64,000 bases of DNA, taken from positions 10,026-74,025 of the forward strand of contig CAMIVO010000001.1 of assembly GCA_946401865.1 (NCBI GenBank), in the 5' to 3' direction. Below the pieces are notes generated by a model. It did not search any database, was not told the origin of the DNA, and saw only the letters and a program-made list of their open reading frames with translations. Below are positions 14,074-18,139 of the stretch, one piece after another (the first letter of the stretch is position 1; each line of letters starts with the position of its first letter). The stretch is from an uncultured Clostridia bacterium (GTDB taxonomy: Bacteria; Bacillota; Clostridia; TANB77; CAG-508). A program made the translations under genes and the position numbers.

Positions 14074-14116
14074 ATGGAAAAGAACAATTAATTTGTTCTT
14101 TTTTTGTTGACAAAAA
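14074..14116. repeat. 43-bp direct repeat, copy 1 (pyrI terminator hairpin plus TTGACA)
   Basis: ATGGAAAAGAACAATTAATTTGTTCTTTTTTTGTTGACAAAAA, identical to 18097-18139. Confidence 0.9.
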
Positions 14117-14175
14117 TTTAGGAAAATAATAGAATTATTTTAAATTAAAATGTATAAAAACAAAAGCAAAGGAAA

Positions 14176-14643
14176 ATGTTGAAGAATATGAATTGTTTGA
14201 TAGATACAAAGAAAGTATATACAGAGGTTGATGCTTTTATAGAATTACTAAATGATAATTATAAAAATAAAATTCCTAAAAAGTTAAGAGATTTTTTTAA
14301 AAATGAAAAAGATAACAATTATATTATGAAAATTGATCCAAATAAACCAATTAAAAGTCAAAATTTAAATGATGATACTCTTTCCTTGATAGCATTTCTC
14401 AATTTAAAATATTGGTGTGAGGATGAAAATGAAAAGCAAAGATTAATTAATAAATATGCTCAAAACGAAGAAAATTATCAAGAAAAATTAAAAAATTTGT
14501 ATAATATAGATAAAGTTCTAGAAAATAATAAAAAAAGAAGAAAAACTAACAGTGAAGAATTGTCTTTGATAGAATATAACAAAAAAGAAACTATGTTTAA
14601 AAAATTTATAAAATTTTTAAAAAAAATGTTTTTAAAACATTAA
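14176..14643 (+). CDS. Hypothetical protein (Lys/Asn-rich, 155 aa)
   Basis: ORF inside the repeat-bounded island, upstream of the large HD protein. Confidence 0.5.
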   Translation: MLKNMNCLIDTKKVYTEVDAFIELLNDNYKNKIPKKLRDFFKNEKDNNYIMKIDPNKPIKSQNLNDDTLSLIAFLNLKYWCEDENEKQRLINKYAQNEENYQEKLKNLYNIDKVLENNKKRRKTNSEELSLIEYNKKETMFKKFIKFLKKMFLKH

Positions 14644-14728
14644 AACATGTTTATAACTGAATTAGGAACCTTAAGATATTTTACATACTGGTAACAACTG
14701 AAAACTAAAAATAAAAAGAGGAAATAAA

Positions 14729-17700
14729 ATGAGATTTTTGGGAAATAAAGAATATAGAATAAATCTTGCTGAAGAAATTGAAGATTTAATTGATAGCTTT
14801 ACAGAAGAAAGTATTATATTAGCAAAAAAAACAAAATTGGCTATCGAAAAAAAAATTTTGAAAATAAATATAAATAAATTGCCATTAAATAGAAGACAAG
14901 AGATATATTCAAGAATTAAACAGTTAGAAAATATTGATTATAAGGCAAATTTTTTAAACCTTGATGATTCGGATATTAATTTAACTAAAGATATATACTC
15001 TAATAATATTAACATTTCACCCTTACTTTACTTGAAAATAATATCAGATGACGAATTGTTTAACAAAATTCTTTCTTTACCACAATTAGCGAAATTATTA
15101 ATGAATACGACAGATAAAAAAAATTATATAAATACTGTAGTTGAAATAAAAGATAATTTTGGCATAGAATATTTAAACTACATTATGAATCAGTCAATGT
15201 CACTCGGTATTATTGATAAACATAGAAGTGTATTTAATCCGAAAATTATTGAGATTTGCAAAGATTATATAAATGTTCATAAAAATGAAGATAATAGTCT
15301 TTTTTTTAGAAATTTAACTATATTAAACTCTCATTATATGTATATTTCTTCAATTGCAACTAAATATGTAAAAAGCGCAGAGGATATTTTAGATTTAGAG
15401 AATTGCTATAGAGGTTGTTTTAAAGAAATTCCGCTTATTGATAAAAATAATCAAGTTAACAAAGATAAGATTTCTACATATGTATATGGAATTCAATATA
15501 ATGAAATTAAAGAGTTAGTAACTAAATATGGAAAAGACTTATATTTATCAAAAGAAATAACTCAAAAAGATATATCAAAGATTGAGGCACTTAATCCACA
15601 ATATAGTCAGCAAATTATTGAAATTTTTCCAATTATATCAATGATGAGATTATCAGAAAAAGAAATTGAAGAAATTGATAAGAACAGATTAGAAGAATTA
15701 AATGAACTATATAGTGTGTTTGAACAACTTAAAGATATGAAAAAAATAATTGATTTTAACAGTAATGATATGACAGAGATAGAGGCGTTTGTTCAACAAA
15801 TTAAAGAAAATTCAAATGGAAAAAAGTTTATTAATTATTTTGAATTTCAATCTAAAATAATTAAATTATTTGAAAATGAATATAATAGAAAGTTATATAA
15901 TCCTGTAAAAGATGCTAAGAAATTAGAAGATCTATCTGAAAAACTAGGAGTAGATGTATATGAAATCGATTATGATAGACTAGATAGATTTAATGCTATT
16001 GCAAGAGTTGATAATGCTTTTCATAAAAATATTAGATCGAAAAAAGAGAAAAGATATGAAGTTAAAGAAAATATTAAATATGACGGTATAGCTACATCTT
16101 ATATGAATAGTGAAAATTTAACATTTACACCTGTAGAAGTAAATGATATTATTTCAGGATATTCTTATATAAATGGTTTACAAAATGTAGCACCTTGGGA
16201 TTTTGTTTCATGGAAGTCAGTTTTAGCAAACATTTCTCCTGAGTATGTAAAAAATAATAATAAAGGATATGGTATAGAATTTCATTTTCCAAATAACTTA
16301 TGTGATCAAGCAAGATTAGCTAATACAGAATTAACATTTTATAACTACAAGTTTATAGATAATAGGTATCAAAAAAAGCAACCTAATTATTATTTATATG
16401 AAATAGGAGGTGAGTTTAATCCAAAAAATCCTAAATCAGTGGAAGTTAATCAAGAAAAATTGGTCGAAATTTCTAAATTTAACCCAAAATATCGTCAATG
16501 GTTAGAAACAAAAAATGAAGCTTCACATTTTAAAAGGCCAATATTATTGTTTAATAGAGAAAAAATATTAGAAATAAATCAAAAAAAAATTGAAGATTTA
16601 AAGGAACAAGTTTATAAATGTGATGACATTGATGAAAAAATAGAATTTATGGAGCAATTGATTACGTCTTATGAAAATTGTTCTAATTCAGTTAATAATG
16701 CTTATTATCCCAAACGTTCTAAACGTTGTAATATAATATTTAATATAAATACTCATGGTGAAACTATAAAAAATGAATTTTTTAAATCATCTAATAGAAG
16801 AAATTTCTATGATGAATTATTTAATTATATTAAAAATTACTTTAGTAGAAGTCCCGAACAGGCTATTAAACTATTAAAGGCATATAAAAGAATATGTAAA
16901 AACGAATTATCAAAATTAACAACAAATACATTATATAGAGGGAGTGGTATAACTGTTAATAGAAATTTGAAATATATTTTAGACAATTTTTCTTTAGAAA
17001 AGGAGATGGTACATCAACTAGATAAAATTGAATTGTTAGAAGTAAGTAAAACAGGAGGGCAATATATATCTTTTTCACCGAGTGATGATTTAAAAGAATT
17101 AATGAAAGCAATTCGTAAGCCTATTGGTAAAGAGGAACACTATAATGTACCTGGTGCTATTCATGGAGTAGAACATTCTGATAAAGTAATGATTTTATGT
17201 GATGCCATTGCAAAAATGGAGGGCTTATCGGAGAAAGATAGAAGAATAGCTATAATTGCTGGGCTATTACATGATTGGAAAAGAGTTGATAATACAAGTA
17301 ATTTATATCATGGTGAAGATGGAGCCGAATTAATAATCAAAGAATTTAAAAAAGGCAATTTAGATTTTTTGGGATTAACTAAAGAAGATATACCAATGCT
17401 TGCAACTGCAGTGTGTTACCATAATTATCATATAGTAAATTCAAAAAAATATAATCAATTAGATAATGAGGAAATTAATGATGAATTAAATTATTACGGA
17501 ATCAAAAAACTAAAAATGTCTTCAGATGAAATAACAGAATATATAAAAAGAACCAAAAAAATCTGCGCGATAGTGAGAGATGCAGACAATTTAGATAGAT
17601 TTAGATTTCCTAAAAAAATGAACATAGAAAGACCAAGTTATTCATATTTATTAACTGAATCAGCAAAATCAGTAGAAATAAGAACATATGCTAATTTTTT

Positions 17701-18079
17701 AAATCAGCATTTTGCACGAGTGGTTCTACAAGAAAATTATCCAAATAAATTATTAAATATTGATGAGAATATTGATTATGTAGATTTATTGTGGCAAGTA
17801 AGACAAGATATTAATAAACTATATGGAGACAATTATGCTGAAAACTATGAAAAGAAGATACCTGTTGATGAATTATGGGAACAAGTTTATTCTTTAGAAC
17901 CTAGAATGAAAGTTTCTGAAGATAGAGTAACAGAAAGTAATGATAATGACTGTAGTAAAAATATACTAAATTCTGCTATTGAAGCAACTGAAGAAAGTGT
18001 AAGGACTGGAACAATAAAAACTGTTATAAACAGAATTAAAGCTTTTTTCATAAATAAAACAAACCAACAAGAAAAATAG
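14729..18079 (+). CDS. Large (1116 aa) protein with a C-terminal HD phosphohydrolase domain and an uncharacterised N-terminal ~800 aa
   Basis: HD signature HGVEHSDKV...LLHDWKR...RDADNLDRF at about aa 830-960; GAGG RBS. Confidence 0.8.
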   Translation: MRFLGNKEYRINLAEEIEDLIDSFTEESIILAKKTKLAIEKKILKININKLPLNRRQEIYSRIKQLENIDYKANFLNLDDSDINLTKDIYSNNINISPLLYLKIISDDELFNKILSLPQLAKLLMNTTDKKNYINTVVEIKDNFGIEYLNYIMNQSMSLGIIDKHRSVFNPKIIEICKDYINVHKNEDNSLFFRNLTILNSHYMYISSIATKYVKSAEDILDLENCYRGCFKEIPLIDKNNQVNKDKISTYVYGIQYNEIKELVTKYGKDLYLSKEITQKDISKIEALNPQYSQQIIEIFPIISMMRLSEKEIEEIDKNRLEELNELYSVFEQLKDMKKIIDFNSNDMTEIEAFVQQIKENSNGKKFINYFEFQSKIIKLFENEYNRKLYNPVKDAKKLEDLSEKLGVDVYEIDYDRLDRFNAIARVDNAFHKNIRSKKEKRYEVKENIKYDGIATSYMNSENLTFTPVEVNDIISGYSYINGLQNVAPWDFVSWKSVLANISPEYVKNNNKGYGIEFHFPNNLCDQARLANTELTFYNYKFIDNRYQKKQPNYYLYEIGGEFNPKNPKSVEVNQEKLVEISKFNPKYRQWLETKNEASHFKRPILLFNREKILEINQKKIEDLKEQVYKCDDIDEKIEFMEQLITSYENCSNSVNNAYYPKRSKRCNIIFNINTHGETIKNEFFKSSNRRNFYDELFNYIKNYFSRSPEQAIKLLKAYKRICKNELSKLTTNTLYRGSGITVNRNLKYILDNFSLEKEMVHQLDKIELLEVSKTGGQYISFSPSDDLKELMKAIRKPIGKEEHYNVPGAIHGVEHSDKVMILCDAIAKMEGLSEKDRRIAIIAGLLHDWKRVDNTSNLYHGEDGAELIIKEFKKGNLDFLGLTKEDIPMLATAVCYHNYHIVNSKKYNQLDNEEINDELNYYGIKKLKMSSDEITEYIKRTKKICAIVRDADNLDRFRFPKKMNIERPSYSYLLTESAKSVEIRTYANFLNQHFARVVLQENYPNKLLNIDENIDYVDLLWQVRQDINKLYGDNYAENYEKKIPVDELWEQVYSLEPRMKVSEDRVTESNDNDCSKNILNSAIEATEESVRTGTIKTVINRIKAFFINKTNQQEK

Positions 18080-18096
18080 ATGCACATAGCTTGGCA

Positions 18097-18139
18097 ATGG
18101 AAAAGAACAATTAATTTGTTCTTTTTTTGTTGACAAAAA
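18097..18139. repeat. 43-bp direct repeat, copy 2
   Basis: Identical to 14074-14116. Its TTGACA plus TAAAAT 17 nt downstream form the zur-operon promoter. Confidence 0.9.

Follow-up and report, generated by a model that had tools for sequence, protein, structure and literature searches.

We analyzed a 64-kb window of contig CAMIVO010000001.1 (64,000 nucleotides; positions below count from its first letter) from an uncultured, very low-GC member of the Clostridia, the closest relatives of which are metagenome-assembled genomes from rumen, rabbit, and other guts. The window carries a two-gene island between pyrI and zur, enclosed by perfect 43-bp direct repeats. Comparison with related species indicates that the island was inserted between these two genes in the ancestor of the species, duplicating 43 bp of the target. 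The island encodes a small protein of 151 residues and an 1116-residue protein with an HD domain. Relatives of the small gene elsewhere accompany many different enzymes that have only a C-terminal tail in common. These patterns suggest, with about even confidence on our part, that the inserted pair is a module composed of a tail-recognising adaptor or chaperone and an interchangeable effector enzyme, here an HD phosphohydrolase.

A two-gene insertion between pyrI and zur

An earlier reading of the same DNA from its letters alone (hereafter the sequence-only reading) had described perfect 43-bp repeats around the island that duplicate the pyrI terminator and the −35 element of the zur promoter. 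This description was accurate to the nucleotide: the 43-mer ATGGAAAAGAACAATTAATTTGTTCTTTTTTTGTTGACAAAAA matches exactly at 14074-14116 and 18097-18139 on the forward strand, and the 64-kb window contains no further copy. A repeat scan returned it as the longest direct repeat in the region, and no match was found in 100 dinucleotide-preserving shuffles of the window, even with up to three mismatches. The repeats enclose 3,980 bp, and the unit measures 4,023 bp when one repeat copy is counted. Related genomes were gathered by scanning species-representative genomes with PyrI. In the three relatives that keep zur beside pyrI (L005, L006, and L007), the two genes are adjacent and both island genes are absent, which is the arrangement that the sequence-only reading had proposed to look for. 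L005 and L006 contain one 43-mer-like segment, GGAAAGAACATGTTAATGTTCTTTTTTTCTTGACAAAAG, immediately 5′ of the same −10 element, and the 98-bp pyrI-zur spacer of L007 has a single terminator and a single TTGACA, together with the TAAAAT and the palindrome that are found in the zur promoter region of the window. The flank to the left of the left copy (AAATTTTAT) is ancestral pyrI-proximal DNA, as in L005, and the flank to the right of the right copy is the ancestral zur promoter, as in L005-L007. Because pyrI is followed by zur with a single terminator/−35 segment in three related species, we conclude from these alignments that the island arrived by insertion with target duplication. The expected empty-site junction would read GAAATTTT, the 43-mer, and GAATTATTCG, and the expected circle junction CTTGGCA, the 43-mer, and TTTAGGAAAA.

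Another element was observed in the same spacer. A 220-bp element resembling a miniature inverted-repeat transposable element, with 30-bp terminal inverted repeats (GAAAGCCTAAATATATTATTTTTCAATCAC), lies at 7457-7676 of L005 and at the same place in L006, between pyrI and the terminator/−35 segment, whereas the variant in L004 measures 167 bp and is oriented the other way. The window holds no copy of it. Since this element sits there in related species, the pyrI-zur spacer is a hot spot for insertion.

Both repeat copies carry a terminator-like hairpin together with a TTGACA hexamer. The hairpin, AAAAGAACAA-TTAAT-TTGTTCTTTT followed by a T-run (14078-14102, forward strand), was recovered by RNA folding and as an inverted-repeat pair, and an identical copy occupies 18101-18125 in the right repeat. 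With a 10-bp stem and a fold energy of −10.6 kcal/mol (z = −1.6), the pyrI hairpin is modest on energy alone, and a simple terminator scan missed it because the stem holds fewer than three G-C pairs. The left TTGACA and a TAGAAT lying 17 nt downstream, inside the island at 14130-14135, form the predicted island promoter (14107-14135), and the right TTGACA forms the zur promoter with a TAAAAT at the same spacing (18130-18158, −10 at 18153-18158). Both promoters, on the forward strand, agree with 11 of 12 consensus positions and are the joint top sigma-70-like matches of a promoter scan of the region. Because the insertion duplicated 43 bp, pyrI would have kept its terminator and zur its promoter, with the left repeat also supplying a −35 element to the island and the right repeat a terminator to its last gene, that of the 1116-residue protein. 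The duplication is a clean natural case of an insertion that rebuilds the terminator and the promoter it splits and borrows a host −35 element. The palindrome AATTTGAAAATGATTTTCAAATT at 18159-18181 (forward strand) is likely a Zur/Fur-type operator, judging from its symmetry, its position, and its conserved sequence in L005-L007. It lies outside the duplicated segment and the island promoter has no copy of it, so the island promoter should escape zinc control. Between the stop codon of the large gene and the right repeat, the 17-bp segment ATGCACATAGCTTGGCA (18080-18096, forward strand) agrees at 13 of 17 positions with ATGCCGTTAGCTTGACA, the zur −35 region of L007, and may be a relic of an older promoter or of the donor locus.

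Independently sampled contigs, at least six in number besides the window (L003, L172-L175, and L178), carry the same island at the same site with both repeats, and their repeat copies are perfect or off by one substitution or one extra T. Synonymous divergence (dS) between strains is 0.04-0.09 and is the same for the island genes as for the flanking genes, which indicates vertical inheritance of the island since the strains diverged. The ratio of nonsynonymous to synonymous divergence (dN/dS) between strains is 0.39-0.43 for the large gene, 0.15-0.25 for the small gene, and about 0-0.27 for the flanking genes, which have few substitutions. Purifying selection acts on both island genes, more weakly on the large one. 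The sequence-only reading had named conservation of the two genes at this position across the lineage, with housekeeping co-expression, as an observation that would refute its inference. As to position, conservation holds for every sampled strain of the species and ends there: in the nearest other species, this site lacks the island.

The gene pair, the shared tail, and the route of insertion

The small gene spans 14188-14643 on the forward strand, a start shared with its homologues and with gene callers. The large gene spans 14729-18079 on the forward strand. These are the two open reading frames (ORFs) that the sequence-only reading had reported, with the small one read as 155 residues from the alternative start at 14176. 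Co-occurrence at three levels of relatedness identifies the two genes as an evolutionarily linked pair. L001 carries a 48%-identical large gene and, 17 bp on, a 49-52%-identical small gene, in the reverse order to that of the window, and the P0003 contig has the same order as L001. A distant HD relative, P0131 (E = 1e-50 to the family profile, about 22% identity), is likewise followed 23 bp on by a gene of the small family (E = 7e-19). A search for the pair in other genomes, as proposed earlier, was thus positive at 48% identity and once at about 22%. In L002 (660-7179) and in the P0003 contig (GCA_016648615.1), a tandem pair of large HD-family paralogues encloses a small ORF or a degenerate version of one; the second paralogue is 54% identical to the L001 protein.

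The small protein family comprises more than 215 homologous clusters, all without names, and searches of Pfam, NCBIfam, PADLOC, PHROGs, and PDB gave no match for the window protein. Elsewhere, the small gene lies 0-75 bp from genes for proteins unrelated to the HD protein and to one another. The earlier description of the 1116-residue protein as lone was therefore misleading, as its small neighbor belongs to a large family accompanying many different enzymes. Partner domains include GH10, GH10 with PHP, HopA1-family, protein-kinase-like, nucleotidyltransferase, and HD domains, and many partners are HExxH proteins. All that these partners have in common is a stretch of ~40 residues at the C-terminus, with the pattern L-[LI]-[EDQ]-S-[AG]-I-E-A-T-E-x-[ST]-T-R-T-G-x-I-N and a charged end after it. 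In the window protein, residues 1068-1116 (17930-18076, forward strand) form a flexible linker and then this motif, ILNSAIEATEESVRTGTIKTVINRIKAFF (E = 8e-10 to a hidden Markov model (HMM) of the tail), with 46% identity to the last residues of an unrelated 391-residue protein in L084. The tail HMM gave 71 C-terminal matches among 1,301 ORFs of at least 80 residues, and 69 of the 71 lie within 2.6 kb of a small gene. Conversely, we considered the 46 distinct small genes flanked by 1.5 kb or more on each side: for 26 of them, a same-strand ORF with an HMM-detected tail lies no further than 700 bp away, 18 times upstream and 8 times downstream, the latter being the arrangement of the window. One small gene may accompany two to three tail proteins (L100, L141, L102, and L124). 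The small proteins are 45-58% identical regardless of partner: that of the window shares 49-52% identity with the one beside the L001 HD homologue and 55-56% with ones beside unrelated enzymes.

A particular arrangement was observed at 1-16459 of L088 and also in L089-L091 and L104. There, genes for radical SAM, GNAT, NUDIX, DUF4160, M28 peptidase, and Fic proteins and for a tail-bearing protein with its small protein form a same-strand array, separated by a 65-106-nt repeat (12 copies in 16 kb, core AAGAAATATATAACATTGCACAAAAT...TTAGAATGTTGAT) located 130-390 nt 5′ of each unit. Several of the stop codons are followed by another repeated element, a hairpin, and no integrase was seen within the 16 kb. 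The whole resembles a series of cassettes or a common regulon.

We propose that the small protein binds the shared C-terminal tail of the neighboring enzyme and serves as a common adaptor or chaperone, which would stabilize, regulate, or direct the tail-bearing enzyme encoded beside it. This explanation fits best because the small protein is constant, the catalytic domain of its neighbor varies, and only the flexible terminal tail is common. In the structural model of the HD protein, the tail comes last in the chain, after a linker of low confidence, a position that would leave it accessible. The 1116-residue protein would be made in the cytoplasm and act as a metal-dependent phosphohydrolase on a nucleotide-type phosphoester, with its upstream domains supplying recognition of a substrate or partner. 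The varied and effector-like partner enzymes, the patchy distribution, and the location of the loci in variable regions, where ParE, zeta, Fic, NUDIX, and GNAT genes, a group II intron, and transposases are found, suggest that the module may serve inter-organism conflict rather than core metabolism. Caution on such a role is advisable, since no secretion or other machinery gene recurs beside the modules among the neighbor clusters.

Several observations weigh against this proposal. No HMM-detected tail neighbor was found for 20 of the 46 small genes; about ten of them have a neighbor with a divergent tail (LIRSAVEASTYRV), and the remainder are unexplained. A recognisable tail is also absent in the distant HD relatives. 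As regards conflict, no known defence model of PADLOC-DB v2 was matched, and the search for a known defence island near the window locus that the earlier reading had suggested turned up only a ParE-type pair 3 kb upstream. The island is fixed in all sampled strains under purifying selection (dN/dS about 0.4), which fits a domesticated housekeeping role equally well. Finally, we found no empty site within the species, because exact-protein look-ups of PyrI, PyrB, and P0005 gave no record, so that mobility is deduced from the between-species comparison only. If the small protein does recognise the shared tail, the module would represent a general unannotated adaptor-and-tag system in abundant uncultured gut and rumen Clostridia, coupling eight or more mutually unrelated types of enzyme. 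Every protein with the tail at its C-terminus would then be a candidate new effector, and a new delivery or regulation pathway might be involved. We found no description of this module in the literature.

Among the possible functions, we rank a cytoplasmic adaptor or regulator highest, followed by a C-terminal export signal with its chaperone, a defence system, and a toxin-immunity pair. Export, which we regard as unlikely, would make the tail a secretion or targeting signal, the small protein a dedicated export chaperone, and the HD protein and the other partners delivered effectors. Partner types such as GH10, HopA1-family proteins, HExxH proteases, and kinases are usually active in target cells or outside the cell that makes them, the N-termini that we inspected do not resemble signal peptides, and one chaperone gene can accompany several substrates. 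The arrangement recalls flagellar chaperones, which bind C-terminal regions of their substrates. However, the lack of recurrent secretion machinery noted above counts against export, neither an LXG/WXG domain nor an immunity-like gene in the window island was detected, and an HD hydrolase of 1116 residues with large helical domains would be an unusual cargo. In an equally improbable but broader scenario, low-GC gut Clostridia would use the small protein and the L-x-S-A-I-E-A-T...R-T-G-x-I-N tail as a targeting route not described before, leading to export, to loading of a compartment or particle, or to triggered release. The HD protein would then be one cargo of a polymorphic enzyme set, and the cassette form flanked by terminator and promoter, here and in the L088-type arrays, would be the way in which modules are shuffled.

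Anti-phage defence, in which the large protein would sense infection, the HD domain would degrade a nucleotide or nucleic acid, and the small protein would regulate, seems to us somewhat less probable still. Several features would suit such a function: the island was acquired, its large multidomain protein carries an HD effector domain and comes with a small partner, the distribution is patchy, with only four close homologous clusters among 5.8 billion proteins, and related modules occur in variable regions with ParE, zeta, Fic, NUDIX, and GNAT genes. Yet PADLOC produced no significant match (the best, Cas3-HD, at E = 0.22), an NTPase or other sensor domain was not detectable, and the small partner also accompanies enzymes, such as GH10, that are untypical of defence. 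The small family was not found in viral contigs, which speaks neither for nor against defence. Least credible, and by a wide step, is a toxin paired with its immunity protein or antitoxin, the large enzyme being toxic and the small protein neutralizing it. Tight linkage of the two genes, often 0-40 bp apart, and the frequency of toxin-antitoxin genes in the module neighborhoods are in line with such a pair, but a single conserved small protein (45-58% identity) stands beside at least eight unrelated catalytic types, and one copy of its gene can accompany several enzymes. Immunity proteins, by comparison, usually differ from one toxin domain to the next. With only the tail common to the partners, the small protein is also unlikely to act by blocking the active site.

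The route by which the island entered the pyrI-zur spacer was considered separately. Most likely, a circular or otherwise repeat-bearing intermediate was recombined by functions provided in trans. A 43-bp repeat with ancestral outer flanks fits att-like recombination in trans and also single-crossover integration of a circle bearing the segment. As in an integrative element, direct repeats stand at both junctions with ancestral DNA outside them, but the island has only two ORFs and no integrase or recombinase gene of its own, and the genes around it are housekeeping ones. It does not resemble a transposon or insertion sequence: the repeat scan found no terminal inverted repeats at its ends, there is no transposase, and the duplication is 43 bp rather than short. 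A more specific scenario, which is possible though we would not favor it, takes the 43-mers as attL and attR of a recombinase encoded elsewhere and the island as a non-autonomous, cis-mobilisable element. The repeat is perfect with sharp boundaries, each flank is ancestral, and the element rebuilds both the terminator and the promoter that it interrupts, much as integrative elements re-create the 3′ ends of the genes they enter. The gene order, permuted relative to L001 (large then small) as if from a reopened circle or tandem array, and the tandem large paralogues in L002 and the P0003 contig are also in agreement. On the other hand, both gene orders are common across the family, no integrase was found in the island or in the inspected 64-kb window neighborhood, most other modules lack flanking repeats (L179 has none), and the repeat in L125 looks like a product of homologous or illegitimate recombination. 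That repeat, a 171-nt direct repeat of 91% identity at 1037-1207 and 3180-3350 of L125, surrounds a module of small and nucleotidyltransferase genes and is a partial duplication of the downstream NUDIX gene, making this a second module bounded by a long target-derived repeat. As only L125 and the L088-type arrays have them, long flanking repeats are not a general property of the modules. A 4,040-bp Logan contig was considered as evidence of a circle and ruled out, its length being that expected from a k=31 assembly break at the 43-bp repeat.

Structure of the HD protein and genes around the island

We modeled the 1116-residue protein with AlphaFold2 on a 70-sequence alignment (pLDDT 86.4, pTM 0.87). 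In the model, helices make up the N-terminal region, an alpha/beta domain (about 396-610) comes next, then helical bundles and the HD domain, and the chain ends in a disordered linker (1067-1095, pLDDT <50) and a helix (1093-1115). The C-terminal HD domain recognised in the sequence-only reading was confirmed by Pfam as a metal-dependent phosphohydrolase domain (PF01966, residues 814-957, 17168-17599 on the forward strand; 31.7 bits against a cut-off of 22, E = 2e-7), and its fold runs on to about residue 1060. The metal-site residues H812, H816, H848-D849, H861, H898, D951, D953, and D956 are all present and are conserved in 57-62 of about 60 relatives. By family profile, the nearest solved relatives of the HD domain are the HD-GYP protein 4mcw (E = 1.4e-5) and other nucleotide phosphohydrolases. 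A Foldseek search with the full model against PDB and BFVD returned no match at E ≤ 1e-3, and the resemblances were at the level of the HD region only (PDE, GppA, and phage HD proteins).

The residues upstream of the HD domain, about 800 of which the earlier reading had left unassigned, stayed without a known family in our sequence, profile, and fold searches: the first ~800 residues have no match in Pfam, NCBIfam, PADLOC, PHROGs, PDB, or BFVD. The N-terminal region (residues 1-395, 14729-15913, forward strand) is all-helical in the model and specific to the close clade, because distant relatives align only from about residue 330 on; Foldseek gave solenoid matches for it at noise level only. 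The family-specific core (residues 396-800, 15914-17128, forward strand) combines the alpha/beta domain with the helical bundles. A separate model of this core (pLDDT 85.7) had no Foldseek match in PDB (best E = 1.3), Pfam at E ≤ 10 reported nothing for the middle domains of seven relatives, and family-profile searches against PDB sequences gave HD matches only. For both island proteins, nothing significant was obtained with PADLOC (best Cas3-HD at E = 0.22 and a 29-residue stretch of PbeB at E = 0.011) or NCBIfam (TIGR01596, E = 0.82), and nothing useful with PHROGs. Close homologues of the large protein form four clusters at 90% clustering among the 5.8 billion proteins. An exhaustive profile search with a limit of E ≤ 1e-3 extended the set to 210 representatives; many measure 1,000-1,700 residues and align only over about 330-1015, and these also show the HD domain alone in Pfam. 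A third search with the 70-sequence profile gave the four known relatives among the matches listed. The large protein thus adds two confidently folded domains without known structural relatives, one of which has a Cys/His/Asn/Glu signature strongly conserved in relatives. In some strains (L172:8542-11907), the protein has 1121 residues owing to a 5-residue tandem duplication, NKTNQ, at the extreme C-terminus beyond the tail motif.

Similarity to ADP-ribosyltransferases was considered at two places. The sequence-only reading had compared LYRGSG...ISFSPS (735-785) with the R-S-E class of these enzymes. Both elements are present in the translation, but the region consists of helices and a disordered loop (709-775 helical, 741-749 disordered), the wider family does not conserve R737, an ExE motif is lacking, and no ADP-ribosyltransferase family or fold was matched, so we abandoned the comparison. 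The other place is the alpha/beta domain. Distant relatives share the signature R, HGNCxS, GY, APWD..S, and TRHxHNE, of which the window clade has kept R426, S457, Y478, and E534 and lost the Cys, the His residues, and Asn533. The order of residues on the predicted strands of 396-610 (HGN...GY...HNE[IV]; R...CxS...E) recalls ADP-ribosyltransferases and is kept only as a lead; an ADP-ribosyltransferase-like fold for 396-610 was not supported by Foldseek, by Pfam at E up to 10, or by the PDB profile search. Among the partners of other small genes, a tail-bearing 602-residue protein (L127:9596-11404) has N-terminal LFRGTR, FLSTSDS, and EPEILF, typical of R-S-E ADP-ribosyltransferases, followed by a kinase-like region; Pfam reported no family for it.

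The island is preceded by pyrB (12696-13610) and pyrI (13643-14065) and followed by zur (18193-18597), encoding a Fur-family regulator, and znuA (18594-19544), all assigned by ORF and Pfam. Rfam and tRNA scans gave no matches. Further upstream, a RecD2/YrrC-type helicase gene (8094-10318) is split into three overlapping ORFs of 352, 334, and 76 residues. As the same split is called in strains L172-L174, it is probably a conserved frameshifted gene or pseudogene and not an assembly error. Between it and a broken Ham1/RdgB-like gene (12012-12659, just 5′ of pyrB; ORFs of 117 and 89 residues) lie a likely toxin-antitoxin pair (10393-11064), made up of a 123-residue ORF and a gene for a 98-residue ParE-family toxin, and then ORFs of 195 and 78 residues without a Pfam family. 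An intact Ham1/RdgB-like gene occupies 7444-8073. We ruled out that the two Ham1/RdgB-like genes represent a second target duplication, as they are diverged paralogues (78% identity over 59 nt).

Comparison with known systems

Like HD phosphohydrolases in general (PF01966; nearest solved structures HD-GYP 4mcw, 2pq7, and the GppA/Ppx HD domain), the window protein has the full H...HD...H...H...D set and a helical fold. It differs in its weak sequence similarity and in being fused behind ~800 residues of unrecognised folds and in front of a partner-associated tail. It is linked to HD-GYP phosphodiesterases by the weak 4mcw profile match only: it has no GYP and reads HGEDGAELI after H861. Assignment to the Cas3 HD nucleases is not supported either, given the values for PADLOC (E = 0.22) and TIGR01596 (E = 0.82) and the lack of cas genes nearby.

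As a genetic element, the island can be compared with the cis-mobilisable elements of streptococci, which are integrase-less islands flanked by att-like direct repeats. Common to both is a direct repeat of tens of base pairs around a short, recombinase-free island. Here, however, the target is an intergenic terminator/promoter segment instead of the 3′ end of a gene, and neither a partner integrative element nor an integrase was identified.

As a gene pair, the module recalls two kinds of systems. The LXG toxins of Gram-positive bacteria are polymorphic effectors with a shared trafficking region and cognate adaptors (PMC5555719). The module resembles such effectors in having one constant region, many enzymatic domains, an adjacent small accessory gene, and loci in variable regions. 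It departs from them in that the constant region is C-terminal and not N-terminal, secretion genes are lacking nearby, as is a variable immunity gene, and no LXG/WXG100 Pfam domain was found in the large protein or in 10 tail-bearing partners. Adaptors of type VI secretion systems are a further example of cognate adaptors for polymorphic effectors. In toxin-antitoxin-chaperone (TAC) systems, the antitoxin carries a C-terminal 'chaperone addiction' extension and is paired with a SecB-like chaperone (PMC5105189, PMC6377645). In contrast to the TAC chaperone, our small protein has no similarity to SecB or any other known family, and the tail is found on diverse enzymes, not on an antitoxin. Nevertheless, a short C-terminal extension and a dedicated small protein encoded next to it are features of both, and TAC may serve as the closest citable mechanistic analogy, the resemblance being functional only.

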